Part shown: in pieces, positions 25,134 through 63,565 of the stretch | Layout: every line of letters starts with the position of its first letter | How positions within the stretch are numbered: the stretch's first letter is position 1 | Notes under the pieces: generated by a model | Seen by the model: the letters and a program-made list of their open reading frames with translations, nothing else | Told to the model about the DNA's origin: nothing | The model's database searches: none | Position numbers and translations under genes: made by a program | From: Heptranchias perlo | Lineage: Eukaryota | DNA length: 64,000 bases | Assembly: GCF_035084215.1 (NCBI RefSeq) | Contig: NC_090367.1 | Coordinates: 186,001 to 250,000, forward strand | Direction: 5' to 3'

Positions 25134-25174
25134 AATTCTCGAGGGCTGCCAGTATTCACAACTTTTCTTGGCCG
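25134..25174 (+). CDS. Kazal inhibitor gene A, exon 2: xFSRAASIHNFSWP
   Basis: TTTCAG acceptor, GTGAGC donor, 41 nt, phase 1-0 as in SPINK exon 2. Confidence 0.75.
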
Positions 25175-25268
25175 GTGAGCAGCTGAATTTAGTATTCCAC
25201 TTGACCGTTAAGAGAGAGCTGGGGGCTTAAAGTGAAGATGTGTTTACATGTTTATTTGATCTCTTTAG

Positions 25269-25372
25269 GCTGACTGCGACTACACCACAATCTGTGTGAG
25301 GGAGCTGCGCCCAGTCTGCGGCACAGACGGTCAGACTTACATGAATCGGTGTGACCTGTGCAAGGAAATAAT
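25269..25372 (+). CDS. Kazal inhibitor gene A, exon 3: ADCDYTTICVRELRPVCGTDGQTYMNRCDLCKEIM (P1 = Arg)
   Basis: Canonical Kazal motif C-x-R-E-x-x-PVCGTDG-x-TY-x-N-x-C-x-LC; AG/GTGAG boundaries; phase 0-2. Confidence 0.93.
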
Positions 25373-25659
25373 GTGAGCCTCCTTATTTCCACCTCGGTGA
25401 CGACCGATATTCTGATTAATAAGGAAGCCAAGTTGTGCGAAGGAAGTTAAGACAGCCGAGAAAAATCTCTTCACAATTAAGTTTTCTCCTGTTTAAGGCA
25501 GCGCTTCTGATCCCGATCCTGCCTTCAGCTGACCTCCACATGCACTTTTCAACAAGTCACTCAATCATCCCAACCAGGCTGGCTGTCAGACCTTGCCAGC
25601 GGACTTTCCTCTCTGCCGACTCCCCTTGTTACTCCTCCATTCATGTTTTTTGTATGCAG

Positions 25660-27430
25660 CCTCACCATCTCCACAACTTCCATTCATATAGCTCATTTCA
25701 TGTTCCAGAGTGCTTCACTGCCATGCCTTACTTTTGAAATGCAGTTACATTTGTTATTCAGGCAAATGCTTCAGCCAATTTGCACATAGCAAGATCCCAC
25801 AAACAGAAAATAAAAAAATGAATTAAAGACTTGCATTTCTATAGCGCCTTTCCCAAAGCGCCTTACAGCCAATTAAATACTTTTGAAGTGTCGTCACTGT
25901 TGTAATGTAGGAAACGCGGCAGCCAATTTATGCACAGCAAGATCCCACAAACAGCAATGTGATAATGACCAGATCATCTGTTTGGTTGAGAGATAAATAT
26001 TGGGCCAGGACACCGGGGAGAATTCCCGTACTCTTCTTAGAAATAGTGTCATAGGACCTTTTACGTCCACCTGAGAGCGCAGATGGGGCCTTGGTTTAAC
26101 ATCTCATCCAAAGGACAGCACCTGCAACAGTGCAGCACTCCCTCAGTACTGACCCTCCGACAGTGCAGCACTCCCTCAGTACTGACCCTCCGACAGTGCA
26201 GCACTCCCTCAGTACTGACCCTCCGACAGTGCAGCACTCCCTCAGTACTGACCCTCCGACAGTGCAGCATTCCCTCAGTACTGACCCTCCGACAGTGCAG
26301 CATTCCCTCAGTACTGACCCTCCGACAGTGCGGCGCTCCCTCGGTACTGACCCTGCAACAGTGCATCACTCCCTCAGTACTGACCCTCCGACAGTGCAGC
26401 GCTCCCTCAGTACCGCCCCTCCGACAGTGCAGCGCTCCCTCAGTACCGCCCCTCCGACAGTGCAGCGCTCCCTCAGTACCGCCCCTCCGACAGTGCATCA
26501 CTCCCTCAGTACTGACCCTCCGACAGTGCAGCGCTCCCTCAGTACCGCCCCTCCGACAGTGCAGCGCTCCCTCAGTACCGCCCCTCCGACAGTGCAGCAC
26601 TCCCTCAGTACCGCCCCTCCGACAGTGCAGCGCTCCCTCAGTACCGCCCCTCCGACAGTGCAGCGCTCCCTCAGTACCGACTCTCCGATAGTGCAGCGCT
26701 CCCTCAGTACCGACCCTCCGACAGTGCAGCGCTCCCTCAGTACTGCCCCTCCGACAGTGCAGCGCTCCCTCAGTACTGACCCTCCGACAGTGCAGCGCTC
26801 CCTCAGTACCGCCCCTCCGACAGTGCAGCGCTCCCTCAGTACCGACCCTCCGACAGTGCAGCGCTCCCTCAGTACCGACCCTCCGACAGTGCAGCGCTCC
26901 CTCAGTACCGCCCCTCCGACAGTGCAGCGCTCCCTCAGTACCGACCCTCCGACAGTGCAGCGCTCCCTCAGTACCGACCCTCCGACAGTGCAGCGCTCCC
27001 TCAGTACCGCCCCTCCGACAGTGCAGCGCTCCCTCAGTACCGACCCTCCGACAGTGCAGCGCTCCCTCAGTACCGCCCCTCCGACAGTGCAGCGCTCCCT
27101 CAGTACCGACCCTCCGACAGTGCAGCGCTCCCTCAGTACCGCCCCTCCGACAGTGCAGCGCTCCCTCAGTACTGCCCCTTCGACAGTGCAGCGCTCCCTC
27201 AGTACTGACCCTCCGACAGTGCAGCGCTCCCTCAGTACCGACCCTCCGACAGTGCAGTGCTCCCTCAGTACTGACCCTCCGACAGTGCAGCGCTCCCTCA
27301 GTACGGACCCTCCGACAGTGCAGCGCTCCCTCAGTACCGCCCCTCCGACAGTGCAGCGCTCCCTCAGTACTGCACTGAAGATGAATGACCAGTTAATCTG
27401 TTTTTTAGTTGGTGTTGGTTTAGAGAGGAA
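25660..27430 (-). mobile_element. Deu-domain SINE nested in an older copy, with a 30-bp tandem expansion of ~41 units (26125-27375)
   Basis: SINE tail and body at 25825-26125 run into (CCTCCGACAGTGCAGCGCTCCCTCAGTACCGM)n; the older copy resumes at ~27380. Confidence 0.88.
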
Positions 27431-27979
27431 TGTTGTCATCTCGATAAGTCACTTATTGGAGAATTGTTTGGCGGGAGAATTCTTTCCAACAGTGGTGAAA
27501 TGAGCCAATGGGTGGGGCAGAGTGGGTCAGTCAACCACCTTTGGGCATTGATGATCCCTCAAAAGAGATGTTCAGTCATTCCTCACCAACTGAGATACGT
27601 TGTGCGGGCACTGAAGGTGTGATGGATGACTCTGGCCCGGAATCAGTCAATTCATTTGCCCACAGAGATCGAAATATCTCGCAGCTCAAAGTTCACAGAT
27701 GGTTATTCTGTGGGTGAACTATTAACAGCCAGCAGCCACACACGGAGGATCGGAATTAATTTAAGATTCATTGAACCAGCCAGGGTAGCGGGTGGGTCAG
27801 TGCCAACGGTCTCAGTGCCAGGAGGGGAAAATCAGCCATTGTCCGTGGGCCTGATTTCTATCCAGTAACACCTGTTGGAGAGTGTAGGTTCATGGACATC
27901 TCGTGATAACAGGGAGCAAAATTAGGAACACAATATAATGAAAGATTAAACTAGGTTTACCTTCTGTGTTCGCTTGCAG

Positions 27980-28025
27980 GAAGTCTGGCCGGGATATTAA
28001 TATAAAGAATCACGGAAAGTGTTGA
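27980..28025 (+). CDS. Kazal inhibitor gene A, exon 4: KSGRDINIKNHGKC*
   Basis: TTGCAG acceptor in phase; supplies the sixth Cys (HGKC); AATAAA at 28142-28147. Confidence 0.92.
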
Positions 28026-28492
28026 ACCACAGACAGGATCTTGAGATGCCAAAGTATAAGAATTTCACCACAAATTTAATTAACATTATGGTCATTGGGA
28101 ATAGAAGTACTTTTACATTTTGTGAAACTAGCAGAATTGTGAATAAAGTAAAAGTGTTTCTGAATTTGTGTGTATTTGATGATCAATCAGGCAGCGTGTA
28201 CAGCAACACTGGACTAGCACCAACATGGTGCTTCTGCAATGGAAATTTTGGAGGAGGCTTTTTCAGGACCTGAGCCTGAAAACTGCACAGCACCAGTCTG
28301 ACCATTGCAGTGCAATCTCGCACTGTGCTAACAGGTAATACTGAGTTTGCAAGGAAAATGCCAACACAAGCAATCAGGATGCAATTTTATTCAGTAACGA
28401 GCTAATTACATGATGTTTTTATAACGATATTTCAATTCATAACCACTGCTTTGTTTGAATTAAATTACATTTAGTGTTTCTCTGCCATGCTA

Positions 28493-28538
28493 TTAGCATG
28501 GACTGTCAGCCACAATTCTGATATCCATACCAGTTTCC
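28493..28538 (-). CDS. Kazal inhibitor gene B, exon 4: ETGMDIRIVADSPC*
   Basis: TTTCAG acceptor, in phase, sixth Cys then TAA; AATAAA on the minus strand at 28386-28391. Confidence 0.9.
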
Positions 28539-30219
28539 CTGAAACAGAATGAAAAATGTCAATTGATGATTCATCTATACTTCTTTCATCTACATTTAGA
28601 CACAATGAGCTTCCTCTTGCCATTTACAACTGTTAGGAGTTTAGTTTCCCTGCATTTCTAGGCTATATACTTACTGCATTGCAGTCAGCTGGTATCTGCT
28701 GATGGGCCACTGACAAATTTGCTTTCAACCAGGCAATAAAATTCTCAACTGACACCCCTGATTTCATCCAAGATAGCAGCAGGGGTGTCACAATTGGTCT
28801 CAGTGTCCATGGTCCAGGGAGAGAAGGACTCAGGTTCCTGCTTCTGATTGCTATGTAGTGTCTCCTTTTGCGCTGCTTGCATGGATATCAGATGAGGAGG
28901 TGATGGGGCTCAACTGTGATGCCTCTCCTCAAGGCCAAATTATCCACTGGCACCCACTTCCTCACCTATGAAGAATGCACACTTGGATGAGGTACCAAAG
29001 AGTGCCCAGCGTCTGTAGTACCAGCCCCCCAACATACGTTACCACTTCAGGAGAGAAAGGGTAAGGAGCTAACATAAACCAATATTCTCTCCGCTTCTTC
29101 TGAAGGTGCTGACCCATACGAACATATAAACTTGAAGGATAAAAGACATCTGGTCCGCTGAGCCTGTCCTATACTGTCACGGTGTAACTAATGCATACCA
29201 TGACTGTCAGCCGCCCCTCACCCCCACTCACGCAGTCTCCTGGGAGACACATTCCAATACCCACCTACTTTCTTCGTATCGTTATGTCGGCCACAGTCAG
29301 GAACTGATCCAGTTGCGGTAGTTCCATGGCTAGCACAAATCTTCTGGTCTGTAAGTGTCAATTGTAGCGCACCTGCTACCCCGGCTGAGATCAGCTGGCT
29401 TAGCATACTGCAGATCACATCACTGAGCTACTAGTTCGCATAGGTTGGTGCCTTTATCCAACAGGACATTGTGGGAAGCTAGAAAATGTATTTTTGGAGT
29501 GGGTTTTAGCAACTGGACAAACCTCTAGATCACAAGAATGGGAAGATGATTTGGGAAAGTCAAAAATAGGAATGATTATTAAATCTGATCTCAGTGGAGA
29601 TGATTATCTTGGTTTGATCCCCATTGGTCTCATCTTGCACTCTTGATAATGAAAGTCAGAATGCCCCTCCCAACCGATTGGCAGGCAACTGCATGATGAG
29701 AATGTGTGACAGAACCAGATCGGCAGTAAACATGGAAACTGCCATCAATAAGAGCTATTCCTATAATGGATGGGGGAATATTTCAACAGTCAACACTTTA
29801 AAAATTGTAATATAAAGTGTTGGTGTGGGTGTAGCACCAGCGCATGATACAAAGGAATAGCGGCAGACGATTTTAATCTCCCCAGTCCACCCAACCAGAG
29901 TCTCCGCTTTGCAGCTCTGAGAAATTGCTGAGCCAGAGCGGGGCCTGAACATAGTGCACTTTGGTCTCGTTTCCACACCAGGACCATCAGAAAACTCGCG
30001 CAGCTATAAACTGACATAAAATCAGTAAACTTCTTATGTAATATCACTTTCAGCTGGAAATTATTAGTCGACACACTGCCTTATACAGGAGAGAAATTAA
30101 TTTTCAAAAGATATTGCTCAGTTCTAAACAACATCCTTCCTTCTGATAAATCAGTTTTGTTTTCATTTACAATACGGGTCTTCACTGTGGTTCACAGGAG
30201 GAATTATAAAGACACTCAC

Positions 30220-30332
30220 TTAATTTGAGAACAGAGAACACAATGGTTTGGGTAAGTCACACCATCCGTGCCGCAGATAAGGTGAGTATCCTCAGTACAG
30301 GTAGGGAGATTGGTGTAAACGTCACATTCTGG
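30220..30332 (-). CDS. Kazal inhibitor gene B, exon 3: PECDVYTNLPTCTEDTHLICGTDGVTYPNHCVLCSQIK (P1 = Glu)
   Basis: Five Kazal Cys, ICGTDGVTYPN; CAG/GTGAGT; 113 nt. Confidence 0.93.
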
Positions 30333-30427
30333 CTGCGAGAGATCAGATTAACAGGTAACACTGACAATCAAACAGCGTTCGTCATTGCTCTTAAGGTGAA
30401 GTAAAGTGCCAAAGGTTAAGAGCTCAC

Positions 30428-30465
30428 CGTAGTAAAAGCAGGCCAAGTCAGCGGCAAGGCCACGT
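30428..30465 (-). CDS. Kazal inhibitor gene B, exon 2: DVALPLTWPAFTT
   Basis: TTTCAG/GTGAGC, 38 nt, phase 1-0. Confidence 0.85.
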
Positions 30466-30961
30466 CTGAAATAGAAAAACACACAAATCGTTACAAAGCA
30501 CACAAATGTGCACAGACCACTTGTGGACACCTGCCTATTGAGCAGTAGGACGATTTTTAGAAGTGACAGGGATTCTCACCGAAACCACATCAAACATTTG
30601 AATAAATCACATCATCAAGAAGGTCCAGGAGTAAAAGGTGATAACAAGAAGCGTTTAGAATGTTGGCCATTAGCCAAGAGGCTCCTTTAACATTCTCCCA
30701 CAACACTCTCTTCAATAAAGTCCTGGTTATCACTGTTTACGTTTGAAATGGGAACGGTTACGTAAAATTTACAGTACAGCAACAGGCCATTCGGCCCAAC
30801 TGGTCTGTCCTCGTGTTTATGCTCCACACGAGCCAGTATCTTCAGTACCAATGAGAGGGAAGATGCTCTGGTTCATGGAGATTTCAGATGGAAAAGAATC
30901 CCCATCTCCAGGCTCCAATATTAGATGGTGATAAATAATTTACAGTTAGACCCTCACTCAC

Positions 30962-31010
30962 CAGCGAAAGCAAGAACTGCAACGCTGACTATGAGAAACA
31001 TTCTGTCCAT
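30962..31010 (-). CDS. Kazal inhibitor gene B, exon 1 (signal peptide): MDRMFLIVSVAVLAFA
   Basis: AAGATGG start context, hydrophobic core, GTGAGT donor in phase 1; the four exons join into an 81-aa ORF; TATA-like CATAAATA at 31060-31067. Confidence 0.9.
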
Positions 31011-31639
31011 CTTCCCTGTGAGTTGAATGGGTGTGAGCTAACCAGTTCAATGCTGGCAGTATTTATGTAGTTTCACATCTTGTTCCTCCAATATCTTGGG
31101 TCAAGTATTGCCTGTGTCATGTGCTGAATCAGTTACTAAGTGCTGGTTGAAAAATTCTTTAAAAGAGTGGCTTGCAACACATGAACCATAGGTCAATCAA
31201 ACAGCCGAGTGGGTCCAATCCCAGTCATTGTGACGTGTTAGAACACTTTCAACTGCTGGGACCTGGGTTTGAATACAGCCCAAACTAAAGTGATGAAAGT
31301 CTTTTGGAGGGGTAGCAATCTGCAAAGATGTGCTCAAAAGGCTGAAAGTACATTAGCTCCTCCTGGCACCAGTAAGGAAAGTTTAACACTGCACCTCTTC
31401 TTCCTGCAGATCAGGTTTTACCAAGTGGAGCCCTGTTGGTGGGCAACCCCCCTCAGTCGGTGAATAAAATGCCTTCAGGGTCCGGATAAGACCCTGATTT
31501 GCATGTACTAATGAGGCTCCCAGGCCCAGTTAAGGTGGCAGCGGGTGAGAATGGTGTAGGAATCAGACAGTAAGTTTTTGGAGTCGATTTTAACTGTGTG
31601 GCTGCCCTGAACCCACCAGGTGGGGTGGGTTAAAACTGC

Positions 31640-31990
31640 CATGGTGTTGAAATTTGCAGATGATACCAAATTGGGGGTTATAGCTAATGTGAAAGACTGC
31701 ACTAAAATACAGGAAGACATTAACAGGGTGCACAGCAGGCTGTTAAATGGCAAATGAAATTCAATATAGCAAAGTGTGAGGTGGTTCATTTTGGTAGGAG
31801 GAATGAGGAGGCCACTTAATTCTTTGAAGGTAAGAAATTAAATGGGGTAGAAACTAAACGAGGTAGAGGAGCAAAGTGCGGAAAAGATTTACAAGGATGT
31901 TACCAGAATTGATATGGTGCAACTATCAGGAAAGGATGAGCAGGCTCTTTTTCTATGGAAAAGAGAAGACTAAGAGGAGAGCGGACTTCA
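31640..31990 (+). mobile_element. Old CR1 RT fragment
   Basis: KFADDTKLG, WQMKFN, KCEVVHFGR, RFTRMLPEL. Confidence 0.75.
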
Positions 31991-33138
31991 ATAATGTTTC
32001 CATGTGGCTGTCACTGGATGATGTGTACAAGAGGAAGTACCAATTTATGGATTACATTGATGAGGTTCTGAGTGGATTATCTCGATAACAGACAATATGG
32101 ATATTAGAATTCTTATTTTATTTTTCTGATGTTTTTGCCCTCTTTTCTACTTTTCCCATCCACCGTCAAAGTTAGTTTTTAGAGCTCAGGGCACAGTCCT
32201 GTTAGCCTGTTAGTAGTCAAAGCTGGTACCAGCTGTTTTTTGGCACAGGCCTGATGGCTGATCATCAAAGCTGGCATATCGTGCTCTGGGCACAGTCCTC
32301 ATCATCCATCACCTCTTAGCTTCCTAATTGGGTACACTAATTAGCCAATGAAGTCTGATCTTAAGTAAACGTGGCAGAGAAGTGTAAAGATTTATGTTCC
32401 AACTGCTGCCACTTTGCTTTTAAGGGAACAGGGCTTGTAAGAAAACCAGGATGTGTGTGTCAGAAATCTCAATGTGTAAAAGTCTGACAGTCAAGTCAGA
32501 AATCTCAGTAAGGCATGCTTACATCATAAATCATGTGACAGGCAGTCCATAGGGATAGATGACTTGGATTTGTCCACTATCACTGGTTGACCAGTGACTA
32601 TGAAAGTGATATCGTCCTGCCAGGTAGTGATCAACCATCTTATTTCCTGGTGTGTAGATTGAGCAGGTGCACCGTCATGCTGAAAAATCCCTGCTCTCTT
32701 CAACATTTTCTCCTCTTATGATAAGGGCTGCTTCCTCCGCAGATCTAAAGATGTAATCCTGCCCTAAAAGGTCTCTTTGTGCATCAGCTTGGTGCAGTGG
32801 CTGGCTGAGAAGGATCTGGATTTGAGCCTCACACAAAGGCTAATCTAGGCTGACATTGCAGTGCAATGTTGGAGGCGTCGTCCTTTGGATGGGAAGTTAA
32901 GATGAGTTCCCATCGGTCTGTTTCGTTGGTTCAGGTGGATATTAAAGATACCATAGTACTAAGAGATGAAGAGTTGTCCAGGTCTCCCCTCCACACATAT
33001 TCCCTGTCCCTCCAACAGGCTAGTTTATAGATGCTTTTACAATTAGGGTTAGGGTTGGATCATGGGAGAGTGATGCCCCCGAGTTTCCTACATTTACACT
33101 ATGAAAACTGGCTCCCTTATCCCAACTGAATGATAGAT

Positions 33139-33296
33139 AAATGTAAGGAATCTTACAACACCAGGTTATAGTCCAACAATTTTATTTGAAAATCACAAGC
33201 TTTCGGAGGCTTTTCGAATAAAGCTGTTGGACTATAACCTGGTGTTGTAAGATTCCTTACATTTGTCCACCCCAGTCCATCACCGGCATCTCCACA
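33139..33296. mobile_element. Penelope-like non-autonomous hairpin element with target-site duplication
   Basis: Perfect 40-bp inverted arms 33139-33178/33225-33264; flanked by GAATGATAGAT / GAATGATCGAT; the family assignment rests on recalled shark repeats. Confidence 0.75.
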
Positions 33297-34294: not shown

Positions 34295-34812
34295 CTGGAC
34301 CAATCAGGCAGCGCGGGGTGACTGGACCAATCAGGCAGCGCGGAGTGACTGGGCCAATCAGGCATCGCGGGGTGACTGGGCCAATCAGACAGCGCGGGGT
34401 AAGTGGATTAATCAGGCCGCGTGGGATAACTGGATCAATCAGGCAGCGCGGAGTGACTGGACCAATCAGACAGCGCGGAGTAAGTGGATTAATCAGGCCG
34501 CGTGGGATAACTGGATCAATCAGGCAGCGCGGAGTGACTGGACCAATCAGGCAGCGCGGAGTGACTGGACCAATCAGGCAGCGCGGGGTAAGTGGACCAA
34601 TCAGGCAGCGCGGAGTGACTGAGTCAATCAGGCAGCGCGGGGTAAGTGGACCAATCAGGCAGCGCGGAGTGACTGAGCCAATCAGGCAGCGCGGGGTAAG
34701 TGGACCAATCAGGCAGCGCGGGGTGACTGGATCAATCAGGCAGCGTGGAGTGATTGGACCAATCAGGCAGCGTGGGGTAAGTGGACCAATCAGGCGGCGC
34801 GGAGTGATTGGC
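34295..34812 (+). repeat. 24-bp minisatellite (GTGACTGGACCAATCAGGCAGCGCGGR core), ~21 units, most with a CCAAT box
   Basis: Tandem units inside a CpG-rich stretch (~33.6-35.0 kb). Confidence 0.93.
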
Positions 34813-37812: not shown

Positions 37813-37885
37813 TTACACTTTCTGTTCCATTGAGCCTTTCTTGCATTTTCCTGGATGTTTGATTTTGACATTTAAACTTTTCTCC
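37813..37885 (-). pseudogene. Kazal locus C, orphan exon 4: EKSLNVKIKHPGKCKKGSMEQKV*
   Basis: Acceptor context (CCCTGAAAGAAGTGAAAAATGT on +) is homologous to exon 4 of B, D and E; HPGKC; no exons 2-3 found. Confidence 0.75.
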
Positions 37886-38739
37886 CTGAAAGAAGTGAAA
37901 AATGTAAGTTCTTTCATTCATAATACGACACGATGAGCACTCTCCAACCCGTGGAACTGGCCTAGGATTGGACCGCGTCTGAATCGGGATGGAGTCCCTG
38001 TGCGAGAAAATTGGAAAACTAATGTTGCAGGTGATTAAACTAATGTTGAGGCGGCAGGACCATGTGAGCTTGGTCCCTTGGCCCCATTTGTTTATTACTG
38101 CCTGTTTCAGGCACGGGCCCTGGATGCCTATACAGGAGCCTTTACCAATATGGGAGGCGGTGGACTTCCAGCATGGACGCCAAGAAATTTGTAGCTCATT
38201 AAGTTCTCTAATGTTCCCACGTCACACACTGACTGTAGTAAATTGTTTGGGTGGACAGTCTTCTGCCAGACCTCAACCAATGCTGCTCTGAAACGTGAGG
38301 CTTATCAGGTGGGTTGGGAATGATTTCCCCAGAGGGGAGATGCTTGGCCTATGCACAGCACCACCTCAGTTGCAAGGTTGAGTCCAGGGGGCCGATTTTA
38401 CTTGGAGGTTGGGGGTGTGGCGGGGTCGAGGTGGGTGGAGCACCTGAAAGAAGTCATCGCTGCGAGAGTTGGCGGATTATAACTGCCAGGCCTCATAATT
38501 TGATTGGCAGTCAGTAGACCAGCCAAACGCTTTGGCAGCGGGCGTCTGAAACCCCACAGCCAATCTTTCCCCTTCTTCCAGCCATCTCCAACGTGAAGAT
38601 AATTAAATTGCAGATCCTGGAATGTTCTCAGACACCTCTGGCTGGGATCTCACCTATTACCTGTTTAATTGGTTTCAGTAATACTATACTGCAAGACACC
38701 TTTAAAAGGTTTTGAAGAAGTTATTTAGTTACTCATTCA

Positions 38740-39230
38740 CTGTGTGATTGAGGTTCTTGGGACATTTTATTATAAACAGAAACAGGATGTGTGGCTGTAT
38801 AAATATCACTATCATAAACCTGTTTAACTCACATTCAGCAATCTCGCATTGAAAATTGATGGAATGTTTCTCTTCGACACTGTGTAAGCTATTTATAACT
38901 ATATTATATATTACCATTTAATATTTGTAAAACAATGGGGCTTGGGGAGGGGATTAATTTACATCTGAAATCTCATTGGATTAATGTTATCAAAGGGCAT
39001 GAATTTATAAAATGTGCAATGATTTAATTTAAAGCAAACTTTTTTTTTTAAACTTGAAAGCTGCCTGATGGCAACAGGCAAAGGGGACCTGGGTTAGAGT
39101 TGATATTGTGAGGATTAATTTTATTAAAACACAGAAAAACAAACTCCCTTTCATTAGTATGGAAGGAACCATTCCCATTCCAAATGGGAACAATGATAAT
39201 TGGGATGTTACTGGAGAGAATGGGAGAATC
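38740..39230 (+). pseudogene. Kazal locus C, inverted promoter + dead exon 1 + part of intron 1
   Basis: TATAAATA 38798-38805; TTG AAA ATT GAT GGA ATG TTT CTC at 38849 versus ATG AAG ATG GAT GGA GTG TTT CTC in gene D; downstream sequence resembles paralogous intron 1. Confidence 0.72.
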
Positions 39231-39310
39231 TCAATCACCTGCAACATTAGTTTTCCAATTTTCTGCACGTAGGACTCTCTGGAAGTACTGACCTCTTCCA
39301 AAAGGCAATA

Positions 39311-42764: not shown

Positions 42765-42864
42765 TCAGTTCATTTTTATAATTCTCTTTCTTTTTAATTC
42801 GTTTGAGTCTGTTTCAGCATCACATACTCCTTCATGCAAGATTTTAACCTTAAAACCAGTTCCC
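42765..42864 (-). CDS. Kazal inhibitor gene D, exon 4: GTGFKVKILHEGVCDAETDSNELKRKRIIKMN*
   Basis: TTTCAG acceptor homologous to gene B, in phase, HEGVC sixth Cys. Confidence 0.87.
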
Positions 42865-45128: not shown

Positions 45129-45241
45129 CAGTTATAAAGACACAGATGACAGAGGTTTGTGTAAGTCACACCGTTTGTGCCGCACAATGGCTGTAAGTAC
45201 AAGGAACAGGCTGGGTGGTATGGGAAATCTTGACATTTAGG
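45129..45241 (-). CDS. Kazal inhibitor gene D, exon 3: PKCQDFPYHPACSLYLQPLCGTNGVTYTNLCHLCLYNW (P1 = Leu)
   Basis: Five Kazal Cys, PLCGTNGVTYTN; CAG/GTAAGT; 113 nt as in gene B. Confidence 0.93.
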
Positions 45242-45391: not shown

Positions 45392-45429
45392 CTCAATGCC
45401 AGCAGAGCCCCAAGCTGTGGTGGCCAAGT
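45392..45429 (-). CDS. Kazal inhibitor gene D, exon 2: DLATTAWGSAGIE
   Basis: Acceptor homologous to gene B; 38 nt; weaker donor GAG/GTGCTT. Confidence 0.78.
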
Positions 45430-45973: not shown

Positions 45974-46028
45974 CAGTGAAAACAAGAACCACAATAGCAG
46001 CGATGAGAAACACTCCATCCATCTTCAT
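45974..46028 (-). CDS. Kazal inhibitor gene D, exon 1 (signal peptide): MKMDGVFLIAAIVVLVFT
   Basis: Hydrophobic core, GTGAGT donor in phase 1; second ATG at 46022. Confidence 0.9.
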
Positions 46029-46071: not shown

Positions 46072-46079
46072 TATTTATA
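46072..46079 (-). promoter_or_regulatory. TATA box of Kazal gene D
   Basis: TATAAATA ~45 nt upstream of the ATG; position conserved in B, C and E. Confidence 0.75.
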
Positions 46080-50565: not shown

Positions 50566-50569
50566 CTGA

Positions 50570-53328: not shown

Positions 53329-53472
53329 ATGAAGGTAGAACTGTGCACTTTTAGCAGGTGTAAAGTATACTCCGGTCACGGGAAACACCGAGCTCGGGTT
53401 GAAGGGAAGGTTTTCCAGTTTCTGAACTCACAATGTGAGTCAGCCTTTCTCTCCAAGAGAAACCCTCGAGAG
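53329..53472 (+). pseudogene. RPL24: Processed RPL24 pseudogene, 5' part
   Basis: [48 protein letters not shown] versus RPL24 MKVELCSFSGYKIYPGHG...[22 protein letters not shown]; no introns. Confidence 0.93.
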
Positions 53473-55849
53473 CTTTTTGAGCCAGCATGTAGAAAGTCCT
53501 ACAAGAGAGGGGGCGGTACTGGACCTAATTCTAGGGAATGTGGCCGGCCAAGTGGAAGAAGTGCTAGTAGGTGAGCACTTTGGTGACAGTGACCATAATT
53601 CAGTGAGATTTAAGGTGGTCATGGAAAAGGACAGGGAGGGGCCGGAAATAAAGGTTCTAAATTGGGGGAAGGCCGATTTTAATAGGATAAGGCAGGATCT
53701 GGCCAAAATGGACTGGGATCAGCTGCTTGTAGGAAAATCCGCATCGGAGCAATGGGAGTCTTTCAGAAGGGAGATTGAGACCATACAATGGCAACATGTT
53801 CCCGTAAAGGTCAAGGGTGGTTCCAAGAACTCCAGGGAACCTTGGATGTCAGGGGATATACGAGAATGGATTAGGAAAAAAAGGAGGGCTTTTGGCAGAT
53901 ACAAAAGGCTAAAGACGGAGGAAGCCCTAGAGGAGTACAAAAAGTGCAGGGGGATACTTAAAAAGGAAATTAGGAGATCAAGGAGGGGCCATGAAATAAC
54001 ACTGGCGAGCAAAATAAAGGAAAATACTAAGATGTTTTATAAGTATATTAAGGGTAAGAGGATAACTAGGGAAAAAATAGGGCCCATTAGGGACAAAAAT
54101 GGCAATCTGTGTGTGGAGCCGGAAGATGTAGGAGGGGTTCTAAATGAATTTTTTGCATCTGTTTTCACTATGGAGAAGGGCGACGTAGACATAGAAATAC
54201 GACAGAGGGACTGTGATATACTCGAACATATTAACATCGAGCGGGAGGAGGTATTGGCGGTTTTAGCAGGCCTAAAAATGGATAAATCCCCAGGCCCGGA
54301 CGAAATGTATCCCAGGCTACTGTGTGAGGCAAAGGAGGAGATTGCGGGGGCTCTGACACATATATTCAGAACCTCTCTGGCCACAGGGGATGTGCCAGAG
54401 GACTGGAGAACCGCTAATGTAATACCATTATTCAAGAAGGGGAGTAGGGAAAAACCGGGGAACTACAGGCCAGTGAGCCTAACATCAGTGGTAGGAAAAT
54501 TATTATTGGAAAAAATTCTGAAGGACAAAATTAGTCTCCACTTGGAGAAGCAAGGATTAATCAGGGATAGTCAACATGGCTTTGTCAAGGGAAGATCATG
54601 TCTGACTAATTTGATTGAATTTTTTGAGGGGGTGACTAGGCGTGTGGATGAGGGTAACGCAGTGGATGTGGTATACATGGATTTCAGTAAGGCCTTCGAT
54701 AAAGTCCCGCACAGGAGACTGGTCAAGAAGGTACGAGCCCACGGAATCCAGGGTGCCTTGGCACTTTGGATACAAAACTGGCTTAGTGGCAGAAGGCAGA
54801 GGGTGATGGTCGAAGGTTGTTTTTGTGACTGGAAGCCTGTGGCCAGTGGGGTACCACAGGGATCTGTGCTGGGGCCCTTGCTGTTTGTGGTCTACATTAA
54901 CGACTTGGATATGAATGTAAAAGGTATGATCAGTAAGTTCGCTGATGATACAAAAGTTGGTAGGGTGGTAAATAGCGAGGAGGATAGCCTCAGTCTGCAG
55001 GACGATATAGATGGGTTGGTCAGATGGGCGGAACAGTGGCAAATGGAATTTAACCCGGAAAAGTGCGAGGTGATGCACTTTGGAGGGACTAACAAGGCAA
55101 GGGAATACACAATGAATGGGAAGACCCTAGGCAAGACAGAGGGTCAGAGGGATCTTGGTGTGCAAGTTCACAGATCCCTGAAGGCGGCGGAACAGGTAGA
55201 TAAGGTGGTAAAGAAGGCATATGGGATACTTGCCTTTATTAGCCGAGGCATAGAATATAAGAGCAAGGAGGTTATGATGGAGCTGTATAAAACACTGGTT
55301 AGGCCACAGCTGGAGTACTGTGTGCAGTTCTGGTCGCCGCACTACAGGAAAGATGTGATCGCTTTGGAGAGGGTGCAGAGGAGATTCACCAGGATGTTAC
55401 CAGGGCTGGAGCGCTTCAGCTATGAAGAGAGACTGGGAAGATTGGGTTTGTTTTCCTTGGAGCAGAGGAGGCTGAGGGGGGACATGATTGAGGTGTACAA
55501 AATTATGAGGGGCATAGATAGGATGGATACTAAGGAGCTTTTTCCCTTCGTTGAGGGTTCTATAACAAGGGGGCATAGATTCAAGGTAAAAGGCGGGAGG
55601 TTTAGAGGGGATTTGAGAAAGAACTTTTTCACCCAGAGGGTGGTTGGAGTCTGGAACTCACTGCCTGAGAGGGTTGTGGAGGCAGGAACCCTCACAACAT
55701 TCAAGAAGCATTTGGATGAGCACTTGAAATGCCATAGCATACAAGGCTACGGACCAAATGCTGGAATATGGGATTAGATTAGACAGGTCTTGATGGCCGG
55801 CGCGGACAAGATGGGCCGAAGGGCCTCTATCCGTGCTGTATGCCTCTAT
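53473..55849 (+). mobile_element. Young 5'-truncated CR1 LINE; ORF2 (end of endonuclease + complete RT) open to its stop at 55777
   Basis: About 770 uninterrupted codons: SDHN, NYRPVSLTSVV, DFSKAFDKVPH, GVPQGSVLGP, FADDTK; CR1 3' tail. Confidence 0.96.
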
Positions 55850-56229
55850 GAGATCGACTGGACTGTTGTACAGGCCCCAGCACAAAAAGGGGCAGTCCAA
55901 AGAGTGAAATTCCAGAGGACTATTACTGGCGTCTCTCTGGCTGAGATTATGGCTAAGAAGGATTGGAAACCCGAGGTGTGCCAGGCTCAATGTGAACAAG
56001 CAATTAGGGCTGCCAAGGAAGCCAAGGCGGCCAAAGCTGCAACAAAAAGTCAGTGCGCCTACAACTACGGCAGCTCAGAAGATAACACCCACACAGAAAT
56101 TTGCTAAGCCAGTGAAGACTCTTGACTTCCATGCATTAATGGAAAACGCAAAAGATCACACAGTTCGATGTTGATGTATAATAAAAAGCCAGAATAAAAT
56201 TCAATGTTTTTTGTGTCTTACAAAAAAAA
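55850..56229 (+). pseudogene. RPL24: Processed RPL24 pseudogene, 3' part with AATAAA and poly(A) remnant
   Basis: IDWTV...[36 protein letters not shown]; indels; AATAAA ~56180/56193; A-run 56222-56229. Confidence 0.92.
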
Positions 56230-56422
56230 GTATGCACTGTGTCAGTATGAGGCCCGATAGTTCAACTGGTAAAGCATTAACAATTGACAAAAAAACCACT
56301 AACATACATGATTTAAATTTCATTTAATTTTAGACAGAATTTAGCAAATGACATGAAGATCTTTTAAAGATACTTTAATACATAATCAAAAATATTTTTC
56401 ATCAAAATAATAGCTCTGCTAT

Positions 56423-56477
56423 TTAAACAATGTCGCATATTCCATGGTTCATGATTTTAAGATCTAAACCAAGTTCC
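56423..56477 (-). pseudogene. Kazal locus E, exon 4: ELGLDLKIMNHGICDIV*
   Basis: Homologous acceptor; HGIC sixth Cys. Confidence 0.8.
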
Positions 56478-56520
56478 CTGAAAGAGAATGGAAATATTAA
56501 TTAGTGCTCTACTTTAAAAA

Positions 56521-56760
56521 AAAGACTTGCATTTATATAGCACCATCCACGACCGCAGGACGTCCCAAAGTGCTTTACAGCCAATGGATTACTTTTTGGA
56601 GGGTGGTCACTGTTGTAATGTAGGAAACGCAGCAGCCAATTTGCGCACAGCAAGATCCCACAAACAGCAACGTGATAATGACCAAATAATCTGTTTTAGT
56701 GATGTTTGTTGAAGAATAAATATTGGTCAGGACACTGGGGAGAACTCCCCCTGCTCTTTG
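56521..56760 (-). mobile_element. Deu-domain SINE, 3' half
   Basis: GACTTGCATTTATATAGC...GCACAGCAAGATCCCACAAACAGCAA. Confidence 0.8.
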
Positions 56761-57219
56761 ATGCATTTAGCTCTCCTTTTCCCCATAAAACAGATGTTAG
56801 CCAAACAATTCCAGCATGGGAAGGAGTGGAGACAAGGGGGTAGCTTTTGCAGATAGTTGTTTCCCAGGTTACTGGTGGTCCTAGTATGTTCTCATATGAT
56901 GCATGAAGTTGTCTGACAATTGGTGTCGAGGAATATTCTGATTTCTATTATCTATGGGGCTTTACCAGAATTACAAGATGAAATCAATGGGACCTAAAAC
57001 AAGAGTCATTTTATTCACTGAGATCAACTTTAATAATCATTTCTATTTTCAAATCTCCCAAATTATTTTCCTGTCCCTGTAATGCATGTGTTTGTGCACT
57101 CATTAAAACCAATGTATTCTTCAGCTATTTTGTTTAATCTTTATTTAAAAACAACATTTTCTCTCCAATTGTCTCTGATTACCTAGCTTCACCTGCCATA
57201 CTGGAGCTGATTATTGTAC

Positions 57220-57321
57220 CTGTTTTTGGACAGCAACAGGACAGTAGTGCAAGAAAATTTGGAGTGCAGATCGTACTGTCCCGCTGACCTCCAGGGTGCT
57301 GTCATATCCCAGACAGTCTGG
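57220..57321 (-). pseudogene. Kazal locus E, decayed exon 3: PDCLGYDSTLEVSGTVRS...
   Basis: Acceptor flank and PxC start are homologous to B and D; VCGT has become VSGT; 102 nt, out of phase with exon 4. Confidence 0.6.
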
Positions 57322-57659
57322 CTGCAAGTAATGAGATTGACAGATTAATGTGTGCAATCTAAAAATTTACTCTAATGATAAAACAAACTAAAACCTTGGC
57401 ACTCACGAAAATAACGGAATAATACCTAACAGCCTACAGAGAGTGAAAGAGTAAAAATTGGGAAAAGAATATTCCCAGTTTCTGATAACCAGAAACAAAA
57501 TCAAACCCATGACCTTACATTACTCAGCAGAATACTGAGTTCTGGAAAAGTCTAAAAGTTAGAGACCCACAAATCGCACTCTGTTTTTGGCGTAATTTTA
57601 AAGAGTACAAGTGGGGCACGTGACCTTTTTTTGGGGTGGAAATGGTTTATGCTGGTTTT

Positions 57660-58205
57660 AGGAATGTAGGAACAGGAGTAGGCCATTCGGCCCCTCAAAC
57701 CTGTTTCACCATTCTCTTAGATTATAGTTGATACGTATCTCACCTCTACCCACCGTTGTTCCATGTCCCTCGATACCCTTACCTAACAAAAGGGTATCAA
57801 TCTTGGTCTGGAAAATTTCAATTAACTCAACATCCACAGCCTTTTGGGGGAAATGAGTTCCAGATTTCCACTACCCACTGTGAAAAAATACTTGCTGATT
57901 TCACTGCTGAACGGCCTGGCTCTAATTTTAAGGTTATGCCCCCTTGTTCTGGATTCCCCACCAGAGGAAATAGTTTCCCTGTATCTACCCTATCGAATCC
58001 CTTAATCGTTTTAAATACATTAATTAGATTACCCCTCAACTTTTTAAAACTCTAAATGAGTACAACCCGTCCTCATAATTTAACCTTTTAAGCCCTGTTA
58101 TTGTCCTGGTCAATGTGTGCTGTACCCCTTCCAAGGTCAATATATCTTTCCTGATGTTTGGTGCCAAGAAACAGAACATAGTACTCCAGGTGGGGTCTAA
58201 CCAAG
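57660..58205 (-). mobile_element. CR1 3' fragment
   Basis: RGNLINVFKTIKGFDRVDTGKLFPL, tail. Confidence 0.8.
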
Positions 58206-58674
58206 TCTAGAGATAATGGGCATGTACTCCAGTTGGTAGGATATGACTCGTGGTGTGTTTTTCTTTTATTCCTTCATGGGATGTGGGTCTCACTGGCTAG
58301 GCTGGCATTTATTGCCCATCCCTAATTGCCCTTGAGCTGCCTTCTTGAATAACTGAGTGGCTTGCTAGGCCATTTCAGAAGGTGATTAAGAATTGACCAC
58401 GTTCGTGTGGGTCTGGAGTCACATAGGCCAGACCGGGTAAGGACGGCAGGTTTCCTTCCCTAAAAGGGCATTAGTGAACCAGATGGGTTTTTAAACAATC
58501 CAGTAGTTTCATGGCCACCATTACTAGTTCTTTTTAAATTCCAGATATTTTTTTTAATTAATTGAATTTAAATTCCCCAGCTGCCATGGCAGGATTTGAA
58601 ACCATGACTGCAGAATATATTAGTCCAGGCCTCTGGATTACTAGTCCAGTAATATAACCACTATGCTACCGTAC

Positions 58675-61075
58675 CTGGTGGCCCCCAGGGATCTGTACTG
58701 GGGCCTCAGCTTTTCATTATATTTATCAATGACTTCACCAAAGGAACAGAGAGCTGTATATCCAAGTTTGCTGATGACACTAAGTTAGATGACACAGTAA
58801 ATAGTGTAGATGGGAGCAGAAAGTTGCAAAGGGACATTGAGAGATTGAGCAAAACTGTGCGAGGTCATTCACTTTGGACCCAAGAAAGACAGATCAGAGT
58901 ACTTTCTAAATGGTGAGACTGTGGAGGAGCAGAGAGGTTTAGGGGTCCAAGTACAGAAACCACCAAAAGCAGGTGGACAGGTACAATTCTTTTTTTAAAA
59001 AAAAAAGGCTAATGGAACGTTGGCCATGATCTCAACAGGGCTGGAACACAAAGGGGAGGAAGTTATGTTACGGTTTGTATAAAGCTCTGGTTAGACCCCA
59101 TCTGGAGGCTGTGTTCAGTTCTGGGCACCGCACCTCAGGAAGGATAGATTAGCCTTGGAGAGGGTGCAGTGCAGATCCACCAGAATTACAAGGCCAGGTT
59201 GCGTGGAGTCGGCTTGTATTCCCTCCAGTAAAGAAGATTAAGAGGTGATCTGATTGAGGTGTTTAAGATGATTAAAGGATTCAATCAGGTAATTCTCTTC
59301 CCTCTCCCGCACTCCCTCTGGAGTCCCCCAAGGATCTATCCTTGGCCCCCTCCTATTTCTCGTCTACATGCTGCCCCTTGGCGATGTCATCTGAAAACAC
59401 GGCGTCAGATTCCCCATGTACACTGACGACACCCAGCTCTACCTCACCACCACCTCCCTCGACCCCTGCACTGTCTCTCATTTATCACACTGCTTGTCCG
59501 ACATCCAGTACTGGATGAGCAAAAATTTCCTCCAACTAAATGTTGGGAAGACCGAAACCGTTGTCTTTGGTCCCCGCCGCAAACTCCATTCCCTAGTCAC
59601 CGACTCCATCCCTCTCCCTGGCCGCTGTCTGAGGCTGAACCAGACCGTCCTATTTGACAGAGGTGAGCTTTTGACCACATGTCCGCTCCATCACCAAGAC
59701 CGCCTATTTCCACCTCCGTAACATCGCCCGTCTCCGCCCCTGCCTCAGCTTATCTGCTGCTGAAACCCTCATCCATGCCTTTGTTACCTCTAAATTCAAC
59801 TATTCCAATGCTCCCCTGGATGGCCACCCATCTTCTACCCTCTAAATTTCAGCTAATCCAAAACTCTGCTGCCCGTATCCTAACTCGCACCAAGTCCTGT
59901 TCTCCCATCACCCACTATGCTCACTGACCTACATGGTGTACCGGGAACACCTTGATTTTAAAATTCTCACCTTTGTTTTCAAATCCCTCCGTAAGTAATA
60001 GGAGCAGGCCATACAGCTCCTCGCGTCTTCCATTCAATAAGATCATGGCTGATCTTCGACCTCAACTCCACTTTCCAGCCAGATCCCCATATCCCTTGAT
60101 TCCCCTAGAGTCCAAAAATCTATCTGTCTCAGTCTTGAATATACTCAACGACTCAGCATCCACAGCCCTCTGGGGTAGAGAATTCCAAAGATTCATAACC
60201 CTCTGAGTGAAGAAATTCCTCCTCATCTCAGTCTTTATTTGCCGATCCCTTATCCTGAGACTATGCCCCCTAGTTCTAGACTCTCCAGCCAGGGGAAACA
60301 ACCTCTCAGCATCTACCCTGTCGAGCCCCCTCAGAATCTTATATGTTTCAATGTGATCACCTCTCATTCTTCTAAACTCCAGAGAGTATAGGCCCATTCT
60401 ACTCAATCTCTCCTCATAGGACAACCCTCTCATCCCAGGAATCAACCTTACCTAAAACCATCTCTGTAACCTCAGAGATCTCTACGCTCCTCCAATTCCG
60501 GCCTCTTGCGCTTCCCCGATTTTAATCACTCCACTATTGGCAGCTGCCTGGGCCCTAAGCTCTGGAATTCCATCCCTAAACCTTTCCACCTCTAAGTCGC
60601 TCCTTAAAACCTACCTCTGACCAATCACCTGTCCTAATACCTCCTTATATGGATCAATGTCAAATTTTGTTTGATAACGCTCCTATGAAGCGCCTTGGGA
60701 TGTTTTATTACGTTAAAGGCCCTATATAAATGCAAGTTGTTGTTGATAGAGAGAAACTATTTCCTCTGGTGGGGGGAGTCCAGAACAAGGGGGCAGAACC
60801 TTAAAATTAGAGCCAGGCCGTTCAGGGGTGATGTCAGGAAGCACTTCCTCACACAAAGGGGAGTGGAAATCTGGAACTCTCTCCCCCCCAAAAAAAGCTG
60901 TGGATCCTGGAGGTCAATTGAAAATTTCAAAACTGAGATTGATAGATTTTTGCTAGCCAATGGTATTAAGGGTCATGGAACCGAGGCGGGTAATTGGAGT
61001 TAAGATAAGATCAGCCATGATATAATTGAATGGCGGAACAGTTTCAGAGGGCTGACTGACCTCCTCCTGTTCCAA
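58675..61075 (+). mobile_element. Nested LINEs: CR1 (+) containing an L2-type LINE (~59293-60745, +), which contains a CR1 3' end (~59995-60445, -)
   Basis: CR1 KFADDTK ... resumes at 60746; L2 [22 protein letters not shown] and (GTT)n tail; inner CR1 MIPGMRGLSYEERL. Confidence 0.85.
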
Positions 61076-61089
61076 TGTTGTGCGAGTTT

Positions 61090-61260
61090 GGGAACTCTAG
61101 TGGATTGGAGCCTGTCTTTTACCAACAGTTTCCTTGGCATCGATGTTTCCTTCAAACTGCATACAAAATGGTCTCTTATTGCACCATCCAGAAACCCACC
61201 AGAGTCACATTTCTTGGACAGTTTCCTCAGTTTTGCCATAAACTGAGAAATATGGTCGTC
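61090..61260 (-). mobile_element. Gypsy-type LTR retrotransposon gag remnant
   Basis: AKLRKLSKKCD.G.FLDGAIRDHFVCSL...RKLL resembles the gag LRxLAxxC...LRDRxVCG motif. Confidence 0.55.
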
Positions 61261-61632
61261 GACCCTTTCCCTCCTCTGGTTTAAATTTCATCAGTTCCAC
61301 AAATACAAGCGGTGTTGGAATCTGATGTTCTTTGACTACTTGGAGCACCCCCTCATTCAGACTGGGCAGGAGCAATCAGATTCTTAATCAATGTAGATCC
61401 GCAGAGAATCAGTAAAACTCCTCTCCCTCTCGTGATTCACAATTATGTGGGACAGGCTGGATGGACCAGAAGGTCTTTTCCTGTCCATCATTGTTCGTAT
61501 AACAAGATACGAGCTAAAGGCAAGGAATTTACCAACGGATGGGACAGTCTTTGGGATATGAAGGAACAGAATTAGGAAAACACATTAGTAAACGCTGTAA
61601 ACACAGAAACAAATTTAAACTTAGGAACTCAC

Positions 61633-61664
61633 ATCAATGACATCACTCTGAGTCACAGGCAGTT
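61633..61664 (-). pseudogene. Kazal locus E, exon 2: ELPVTQSDVID
   Basis: Acceptor (CTGAAATAGAAAAACACA on +) identical to gene B; GTGAGT donor; 32 nt, phase 1-0. Confidence 0.75.
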
Positions 61665-61758
61665 CTGAAATAGAAAAACACACAGATCATTGCAATGGAC
61701 ACGAAGATACAAAGACCCCTCATTCCCCACTGTTTATTGAGTAAGGAGGAAGAAGGCG

Positions 61759-62360
61759 TCAGCTGTGGTTCAGGAAAAGCAATCTCGCCTCAGACATCAC
61801 CGTCACACATCCTGCCCCACTCCAGAGACTTGAGCCCATAATCCAGGCCAACACTCCCAGTGCTGTACCGAGGGAGCGCCGCACCGTCGGAGGGGCAGTA
61901 CCGAGGGAGCGCCGCACCGTCGGAGGGGCAGTACCGAGGGAGCGCCGCACCGTCGGAGGGTCAGTACTGAGGGAGCGCCGCACCGTCGGAGGGTCAGTAC
62001 CGAGGGAGCGCTGCACCGTCGGAGGTGCCGTCTTTCAGATGAGATGTTAAACCGAGGCCCCGTCTGCTCCTCTCAGGTGGATGTAAAAGATCCCACGGCC
62101 ACTATTGGAAGAAGAGCAGGGGGAGTTCTCCCTGGTGTCCTGGGGCCAATTTTTATCCCTCAACCAACATCACTAAAAAACGGATTACCTGGTCATTATC
62201 ACATTGCTGTTTGTGGGATCTTGCTGTGCACAAATTGGCTGCTGTGTTTCCTACATTACAACAGTGACTACACTTCAAAAGTACTTCATTGGCTGTAAAG
62301 CTCTTTGGGACGTCTTGAGGTGGTGAAAGGCCCTGTAGATATACAAGTCTTTCGTTCTTT
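61759..62360 (+). mobile_element. Near-complete Deu-domain SINE with ~5 copies of the internal 30-bp unit
   Basis: Head, expansion 61865-62025, Deu body, tail. Confidence 0.88.
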
Positions 62361-62789
62361 ACACATGATGGGGATTCTCACTGAAACCACATTAAACATT
62401 TTAGTAAGTCACTTATTCAAAAAGAGCCCAAATAGCAACAATCGTTTAGAATATCGACAGTTAAAATGGTTCCCTCTAACATTCTTGAATCATATTATCG
62501 CCAACAAAATCCCAATTATCAGTGTTCATATTGGAATGGGAATAATTCCATCAATATCAACAAAAGGAAAGATTTTGCTCTGTTTTTTAATAAAATACAA
62601 TACCCACAATATCAGCACTAACCTGTCGTCACCATTTGCCATTTCAGTGTCTGGTAAGACTAGTTTTACTTTAAATTACTACACCTGTAATTTATAACAA
62701 AATGTGTGATAGTTTAATTTGTCACCACTACATCATTTAATGAATTTTCAGATGTAAAAGAGTCCCTTCCACTAGACTCCATTATTCTC

Positions 62790-63460
62790 CCACTCTGTAG
62801 TGGTCCTGGGTTCAAGTCCCACTGCAGAACTAGGCACATAATCCAGGCTGAGACTGCAGAACCAAAGGGGACATGAGGGAAAACTTTTTTTTACACAGCG
62901 AGTGGTTAGGATCTGGAGTGCACTGCCCGAGGGGGTGGTGGAGGCAGATTCAGTCATTGCCTTCAAAAGGGAACTGGATAAGTACTTGAAAGGAAAAAAT
63001 TTGCAGGGCTACGGGGATAGGGCTGGGGAGTGGGACTAGCTGGATTGCTCTTGCATAGAGCTGGCACAGACTCGATGGGCTGAATAGCCTCCTTCCGTGC
63101 TGTAACCTTTCTATGATTCAGTACTGAGGGAATGCTACACCAGCAGACTTGCCATCTTTCAGATGAGGTGTTAAAACCCAGAGCTCATCTGCCTGTTCAA
63201 GGGGATGTAGAAGAACCAAAGGCATTATTCAAAGAGAAGTAGGGAGTTTTCCTGGTGTTCTGGTCAATATTCTTCCCTCAACCATCAAAAACAAATTAAC
63301 TGGTCATTCACCTTATTTGCTGTTTGTGGGATCTTGCTACGTGCAAATTGGCTGCCGTGTTTGTCTACATAACAATTGTGACTACACTTCAAAATCAATC
63401 GATTGGCAGTTTGGGAGATTCGGAGGATGCAAAAGGTGCTTTTTAAATGTACATTCTTCT
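62790..63460 (+). mobile_element. Old Deu-domain SINE split by a CR1 3' end (~62858-63117)
   Basis: SINE ...AGACTGCAG | CR1 | CAGTACTGAGGG... resumes. Confidence 0.78.
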
Positions 63461-63510
63461 TACAAATATTAAATGGTAGTATGTGGTATAAGATTATCGA
63501 CATCACTCAC

Positions 63511-63565
63511 CCGAGAAAACAAGAATCACAATGGCAGCCACGAGAGAAACCTCACACATCTTCAT
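63511..63565 (-). pseudogene. Kazal locus E, exon 1 (intact signal peptide): MKMCEVSLVAAIVILVFS
   Basis: Homologous to gene D exon 1; GTGAGT donor; TATAAATA at ~63607-63614. Confidence 0.8.

Follow-up and report, generated by a model that had tools for sequence, protein, structure and literature searches.

A probably ancient tandem cluster of SPINK-type Kazal inhibitor genes beside NAA40 in the sharpnose sevengill shark

Kazal-type inhibitors make up MEROPS family I1, and in mammals the single-Kazal SPINK genes on 5q32 are arrayed in tandem and have diverged in their reactive loops; human NAA40, whose shark counterpart adjoins the genes described here, is on 11q13. This report concerns five Kazal loci, designated A to E, in a stretch of 64,000 nucleotides (nt) from the sharpnose sevengill shark Heptranchias perlo (contig NC_090367.1, positions 186,001 to 250,000), which we call the window and number from its first letter. 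Canonical inhibitors are described as presenting a rigid loop that a serine protease binds like a substrate (PMC9850914). As summarized in PMC8131977, Arg or Lys at the P1 position of the loop directs the inhibitor to trypsin, and Ala, Val or Leu directs it to elastase- or subtilisin-like enzymes, with exceptions; Kazal domains with a P1 Glu are reported to inhibit subtilisin (PMC3082530). Human SPINK1 has coding exons listed as c.1_55, c.56_87, c.88_194 and c.195_240, or 55, 32, 107 and 46 nt, with the same intron phases as A, B and D (PMC10898081), and chicken ClTI-1/SPINK2 is described as a seminal acrosin inhibitor (PMC6767445).

We consider it likely that the single-domain, SPINK-type Kazal genes in the window form a tandem cluster of old standing. 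A six-frame pattern scan of the window located only three Kazal cores, at 25293 on the plus strand and 30299 and 45208 on the minus strand, and the classical cysteine spacing C-xn-C-x7-C-x10-C-x2-C-xn-C is present in A, B and D, the core being absent from C and E. When eight exon-level queries were compared with Pfam, three matched, and these were exon 3 of A (Kazal_1, E 3.1e-11), B (E 1e-09) and D (E 7.5e-10), all above the gathering score; in a further comparison the genes reached 59.1 bits (A, E 4.2e-16), 48.8 bits (B, E 7.1e-13) and 50.5 bits (D, E 2.1e-13) against a gathering threshold of 21 bits. Each of the three genes has four coding exons with intron phases 1, 0 and 2, the exon sizes being 55/41/104/46 nt in A, 49/38/113/46 nt in B and 55/38/113/100 nt in D, and gene structures of this kind are far from chance. 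In nhmmer searches with profiles made from the exons of these three genes, exon 1 was found five times, exon 2 four times, exon 3 three times plus a trace in E, and exon 4 five times. No sixth Kazal locus was found in the window by the pattern scan or the exon profiles; the window ends 435 nt beyond the start of E, and the cluster is seen up to that point. An initial annotation of this DNA had proposed five Kazal loci, with B and D complete and C and E broken, as four-exon, single-Kazal genes of the SPINK1 type duplicated locally next to NAA40. That outline stands: three loci are intact by pattern and by Pfam, two are broken as judged by nhmmer, and the exon phases match those of human SPINK1.

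Genes B and D lie on the minus strand and can be read from end to end with GT-AG splicing. B (31010 to 28493) has a first exon at 30962–31010 that encodes a putative signal-peptide core, a 38-nt second exon at 30428–30465, a third exon at 30220–30332 with the Kazal core and a P1 Glu, and a fourth exon with its coding part at 28493–28538 and an AATAAA signal 102 nt past the stop codon. The product is an open 81-residue protein that begins with a hydrophobic stretch, has six cysteines and is identical letter for letter to an NCBI/UniRef protein (P0024). D (46028 to 42765) likewise joins a putative signal-peptide exon (45974–46028), a second exon (45392–45429), a third exon with the Kazal core and a P1 Leu (45129–45241), which aligns with the ovomucoid third domain, and a fourth exon (42765–42864) with AATAAA 42 nt past the stop, to give an open 101-residue protein, which again has a hydrophobic beginning and a full set of six cysteines and is identical to P0022. 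The donor of D exon 2, GTGCTT, is non-consensus, and its junction is kept in the orthologues; a stronger donor 72 nt downstream was rejected because it creates a stop codon, the annotated protein and five orthologues fitting the weak site. Beyond Cys VI, exon 4 of D encodes an 18-residue basic tail. Tails of 16 to 18 residues with four or five Lys or Arg are present in D and all five of its orthologues, and the D tail aligns with the 3' untranslated region (3'UTR) of B, C and E, so it was probably either gained from UTR in D or lost in the others. The best 11-residue Kyte-Doolittle mean at the N-terminus is 2.7 in A, 3.0 in B and 3.6 in D, and an Atlas model of B, with a predicted local distance difference test (pLDDT) value of 0.70, gives template modeling (TM) scores of 0.63–0.68 against Kazal proteins, whose fold is characterized by disulfides I–V, II–IV and III–VI.

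Gene A, on the plus strand, had been credited with three of its four exons: exon 2 at 25134–25174 (41 nt, ending in phase 0), exon 3 at 25269–25372 (Kazal core with Cys I to V and a P1 Arg) and exon 4, with its coding part at 27980–28025 (Cys VI and the stop codon, with AATAAA 117 nt beyond). We located a candidate for the missing exon at 19714–19768, 5.4 kb upstream of the start given in the initial annotation. Its 55 nt comprise an ATG, a hydrophobic, putative signal-peptide core and a phase-1 GTGAGT donor, with a TATA-like box near 19663. Of the 122 ATG..GT phase-1 candidates in 10650–25100, the interval between NAA40 and A exon 2, no other is as hydrophobic. The DNA of its promoter and first exon aligns with that of B, D, E and C with scores of 54, 64, 53 and 40, the corresponding null maxima being 29, 28, 32 and 30 (all 556 control windows per comparison scored lower). 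With this exon A would be a complete four-exon gene for an open 81-residue protein. The exon is absent from the NCBI model (P0028, 'turripeptide OL11-like, partial'), which joins A exons 2–4 to a different start without an ATG, a stretch at 13407–13449 (plus strand) that lies directly after an in-frame TGA. The last nine residues of exon 2 are identical in the Mobula protein P0052. An Asn-Phe-Ser glycosylation sequon in this exon (25160–25168, plus strand), near the predicted mature N-terminus, is likewise identical in the Mobula orthologue. Intron 1 of A also contains a decayed DDE transposase remnant, which we take to be Harbinger-like (23374–23607, plus strand; Pfam DDE_Tnp_4 E 0.006, under the curated cut-off).

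C and E are dead. What is left of C is divided between the two strands. An exon 4 remnant on the minus strand (37813–37885; nhmmer E 4e-4) retains an acceptor, 3'UTR homology and AATAAA, and aligns with the 3' ends of B, D and E; a promoter, a decayed exon 1 and an intron-1 block are on the plus strand (38639–39222; nhmmer E 1.9e-16), with no in-register ATG and no donor, and this stretch matches D at 64% over 628 nt (E 2e-25). Exons 2 and 3 of C were not found on either strand by nhmmer profiles. A segment at 38000–39268 is bounded by inverted copies (38000–38036 and 39233–39268, exact over 32 nt and present nowhere else in the window), and it is likely that this segment is the inversion that broke C; inversion together with loss of exons 2 and 3 would be the simplest reading.

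E, on the minus strand, retains an open, signal-like exon 1 (63511–63565; nhmmer E 7.4e-17), an open 32-nt exon 2 (61633–61664; E 3.2e-10) and an exon 4 remnant (56419–56477; E 2.5e-09). Its exon 3 (57220–57321) has kept the acceptor, has lost the Kazal core and is out of phase with exon 4. The exon 3 profile match is limited to the acceptor and first bases (E 0.047), Pfam gave no match in either of the two open frames, and the Atlas search gave no usable match, which proves nothing. A 27-nt open cassette with good splice sites is present at 57407–57433 (minus strand); it precedes E exon 3 by 85 nt, the distance at which exon 2 lies in the paralogues. Joins of E with four exons, or with five when this cassette is included, were rejected, as both enter exon 4 out of frame. 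Directly upstream of the E TATA box, a 33-bp unit is repeated 8.9 times (63617–63911); it aligns with the common promoter motif of the family, so the promoter element of E has undergone tandem amplification. The same unit is amplified at 26127–27370 (38 copies), 12742–12998 (8 copies) and 61865–62025 (5 copies), inside copies of a dispersed repeat that is probably a short interspersed nuclear element (SINE).

The common origin of the copies is recorded in their non-coding DNA. Promoter, intron-1 and acceptor sequence had been described as common to B through E, and this is borne out and extends to the 3'UTR. A had been set apart as more divergent than, and convergent with, the others: it is indeed the most divergent copy and stands tail-to-tail with B, but the sharing is not confined to B–E, as A also has promoter and acceptor DNA in common with the other copies (A and B acceptor DNA agree at 77% over 84 nt, E 3.8e-13). 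Over joined alignable blocks (promoter, exon 1, intron-1 block, exon-2 acceptor and 3' end), all 10 pairs of copies have 50–68% DNA identity, values that lean high because the blocks were picked from earlier matches. B, C, D and E radiate like a star, with no resolved order of branching (63–68% identity, Jukes-Cantor (JC) distances of 0.42–0.51), and A differs more from each of them (50–59%, JC 0.60–0.81). For comparison, the median identity of unrelated stretches was 39% and the 95th percentile 49% (n = 382), with a maximum of 1.0 that is probably due to overlapping draws. Since no pair is close, the births of the copies appear to be ancient, and the window holds no recent duplicate.

Orthologues point the same way. 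D has counterparts in two other sharks, Scyliorhinus torazame and Chiloscyllium plagiosum (each with 44/50 domain residues identical), and in three rays, Pristis pectinata (42/50), Mobula birostris (36/50) and Narcine bancroftii (37/50), and A has one in Mobula (39/47); the domains of the paralogues share only 18–22 of about 50 residues. In a protein tree of 65 domains and 55 columns, the A and D orthologue groups each have 100/100 support, and sharks and rays separate within D. The shark-ray split took place roughly 270–300 million years ago. A and D predate that split, which suggests that the cluster is ancient and that two copies died later in this lineage. The initial annotation had taken the family to be lineage-specific and in birth-and-death evolution. 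At the level of the species the former does not hold, given the ray orthologues of A and D and the other sharks that have D; of the latter, the deaths stand, as two dead copies lie beside live paralogues, and recent births do not. The linkage to NAA40 also recurs, as A, D and NAA40 of Mobula are all listed on a 44,030,355-bp contig, and D and NAA40 of S. torazame are both listed on a 56,527,583-bp contig; NAA40 was represented for two of the five orthologue species among the best 120 of 155 matches.

The explanation that we favor is that one gene beside NAA40 duplicated locally, that A would have split off first, followed by B, C, D and E, probably all at a similar depth, and that at least A and D would have been present before sharks and rays separated. 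C would have died by rearrangement and loss of exons 2 and 3, and E by decay of exon 3. In A, B and D a predicted signal peptide is followed by a single Kazal domain with six cysteines, and the proteins are most likely secreted and most likely inhibit serine proteases by the standard mechanism, in which a rigid loop enters the active site as a substrate does and the P1 residue selects the target. With P1 residues of Arg (A), Glu (B) and Leu (D), the predicted targets are trypsin-like enzymes for A, subtilisin-like or Glu-specific and probably microbial proteases for B, and elastase-, chymotrypsin- or subtilisin-like enzymes for D. Taken with the loop alignments, these residues suggest that the three genes cover three protease classes after their predicted secretion.

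Several points weigh against parts of this explanation. No orthologue of B was found among 39 candidates or the best 150 of the 1055 library matches to B (E of 0.001 or less), which is weak evidence of absence and leaves the age of B to be inferred; all but two of those 150 matches exceed 140 residues, and the only other 81-residue match is an unnamed protein with 52% identity. The same searches retrieved no holocephalan or bony-fish orthologue, again weak evidence of absence. Equal contig size indicates a shared chromosome and not adjacency, and SPINK4 and NAA40 of the squirrel share a contig as well (210,638,491 bp). A, B and D were grouped in none of 200 bootstrap trees of the 65-domain alignment. 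A single clade of the three is not rejected (p-AU 0.32, approximately unbiased test), and shared non-coding DNA is better evidence of local origin than the protein tree. As to targets, P1 alone does not always set specificity according to PMC8131977, and P1 varies among the orthologues, being Leu in four of six D proteins, Met in one and Arg in one, and Arg and Gln in the two A proteins. A varying P1 on a kept scaffold is what is expected for Kazal loops.

Other readings of the locus share some of this evidence. A recent shark-specific expansion with ongoing birth and death would suit five local copies of which two are dead, and the failure to find an orthologue of B, C or E; we regard it as very improbable, given that no pair of copies exceeds 68% DNA identity and the paralogous domains have diverged so far, and for A and D it is refuted by their orthologues in rays. 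We consider it just as improbable that the damage to C and E is an artefact of assembly. An apparent 1-nt frameshift in NAA40 and a gap of 200 Ns indicate that the window contains assembly errors, but single-base errors cannot remove two exons from C and decay its exon 1, or leave E exon 3 mostly without Kazal similarity, and damage on this scale is unlikely to stem from the assembly. A different possibility is that the cluster is no separate subfamily and corresponds to a SPINK gene of bony vertebrates, such as SPINK1, SPINK2 or SPINK4, that has relocated, which would be compatible with most of the explanation given above. The exon phases are those of SPINK1, the best single-domain solved relatives of B are SPINK2, PEC-60 and SPINK1, and mammalian SPINK4 is among the matches to the three Kazal exons. 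Set against this, A, B and D fall outside the seven SPINK4 entries in the 65-domain tree, in which SPINK1 and SPINK2 are absent and the deep forks are open, and NAA40 models of birds and bats are fused to COX8 instead of a Kazal domain. We think that relocation is possible, though on the doubtful side. The NAA40-COX8 fusions, together with the lack of any match in the window to the COX8 parts of three such models (a weak test), suggest that the NAA40 neighborhood may differ from that of amniotes.

Two further alternatives concern single genes of the cluster. It is conceivable that the transcript of A begins with 13407–13449, as the NCBI model has it, perhaps by read-through from NAA40, and that its product lacks a signal peptide and is either not secreted or not translated. 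P0028 uses that stretch, which has a good GTAAGC donor, and the Mobula model is also without a signal peptide. We nevertheless consider this improbable, because the stretch lacks an ATG and is preceded by an in-frame stop, the N-termini of the two database models (P0028 and Mobula) are unrelated to each other, the exon at 19714–19768 is homologous to the first exons of the paralogues, and the shark-ray identity begins at the expected mature N-terminus. The suggestion that B is an inactive inhibitor, drifting or serving in another role, is somewhat easier to entertain and still unlikely. Its long branch (1.33), its acidic P1-P1' pair of Glu-Asp, the lack of a Pro before the Val/Ile-Cys of Cys III and of a Gly two residues before Cys VI, and the failed search for an orthologue would all suit it. 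On the other hand, all four exons of B are open, its splice sites are of consensus type and its six cysteines are present, the same C-T-E-D loop occurs in ovomucoid domain 1 of PDB 1yu6, and inhibition of subtilisin by Kazal domains with a P1 Glu is on record (PMC3082530).

A broader proposal can be made tentatively, as one that we judge somewhat less likely than not. The genes may represent an undescribed NAA40-linked SPINK subfamily that belongs to sharks and rays and lacks one-to-one orthologues among bony vertebrates, in which an early split assigned trypsin-like targets to A, microbial subtilisin-like or Glu-specific targets to B and elastase- or chymotrypsin-like targets to D. Such a subfamily might form a surface or gut defense set independent of the mammalian cluster, and the basic tail of D would stem from an ancestral 3'UTR and have been kept in all six species.

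The initial annotation had called the cluster hidden, which the databases do not bear out: the three live genes are already in NCBI/UniRef, B and D as full-length proteins and A as a partial model only. With the three Kazal exons as queries, 49 proteins came back among 275 candidates, three of them from Heptranchias perlo and on one 10,701,561-bp contig; among the 39 candidates, neither C nor E had a protein. B and D are both named 'trypsin inhibitor ClTI-1-like', and these names, like that of A, look like automatic best-hit labels, with nothing here indicating venom. No description of the cluster was found among titles and abstract openings on shark Kazal or SPINK topics, a scope outside which most subscription papers fall. 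New here are a putative first exon for A, two pseudogenes, and the recognition of two NAA40-linked orthologue groups across sharks and rays. The model of A is thereby corrected from a 5'-partial protein to one with predicted secretion, and the same correction probably applies to Mobula; two unannotated pseudogenes are added, and orthologue groups A and D are defined, whose database names are misleading best-hit labels. For SPINK evolution the cluster supplies a point of reference in cartilaginous fishes, and its three natural Kazal scaffolds, which differ in their P1 residues, are easy to assay. No new kind of system is revealed, and the significance is modest.

The neighboring NAA40 gene lies at 4090–10645 on the plus strand, where a tblastn search with P0059 covered residues from about 34 to the end of the 236-residue Carcharodon protein in six exons, with 76–96% identity per segment. 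Its apparent frameshift is at 6744–6752 (plus strand), where 7 nt stand in place of two codons (Tyr-Glu) of shark relatives, and in so conserved a gene this is probably an assembly error. A single 63- to 67-bp satellite occurs as two arrays of opposite orientation, 91–95% alike, one within NAA40 (7415–8316, plus) and the other in intron 1 of A (21305–22528, minus). A CpG-rich stretch between B and C (34295–34811) contains 19 repeats of a 27-bp unit that includes a CCAAT motif, which looks like a promoter array. Between D and E lies a processed pseudogene of ribosomal protein L24 (53329–53469 and about 55856–56225, plus; Pfam L24e E 2.9e-15), the second part of which resembles the 3' half of the gene, with a poly(A) signal and an A-run, and gave no Pfam match. 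It is interrupted by a fragment of a long interspersed nuclear element (LINE), presumably of CR1 type (53426–55777, plus), which has an open 783-residue reverse-transcriptase frame (RVT_1 E 7.6e-33) and is likely a young insertion. Rfam gave no matches in the window at gathering score.

How the shark genes stand to the described systems depends on the feature compared. Human SPINK1, as documented in PMC10898081, resembles them in its four coding exons with phases 1, 0 and 2, in its 55-nt first exon (as in A, D and E) and 46-nt final exon (as in A and B), and in encoding one Kazal domain, preceded in the shark genes by a predicted signal peptide; it differs in its location on chromosome 5, the shark cluster adjoining NAA40. 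Mammalian SPINK1 has Lys or Arg at P1 in the account of PMC9850914, in contrast to the Arg, Glu and Leu of the shark genes. Chicken ClTI-1/SPINK2 is described as a protein of 81 residues with a signal peptide, a Kazal domain and a P1 Arg as in A (PMC6767445), whereas the P1 residues of B and D, both labeled after it in NCBI, are Glu and Leu, and its label as a seminal acrosin inhibitor does not carry over to either. The database protein P0028 differs from A as found here in having no signal-peptide exon. The loop of D matches that of OMTKY3 (turkey ovomucoid third domain, P1 Leu), and the loop of B that of domain 1 of PDB 1yu6 (P1 Glu); ovomucoids, however, carry several domains per chain, whereas in the shark the differing P1 residues are found in separate single-domain genes. 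The mammalian SPINK cluster on 5q32 and the shark cluster are alike in consisting of tandem single-Kazal genes, and they probably differ in the genes that surround them.

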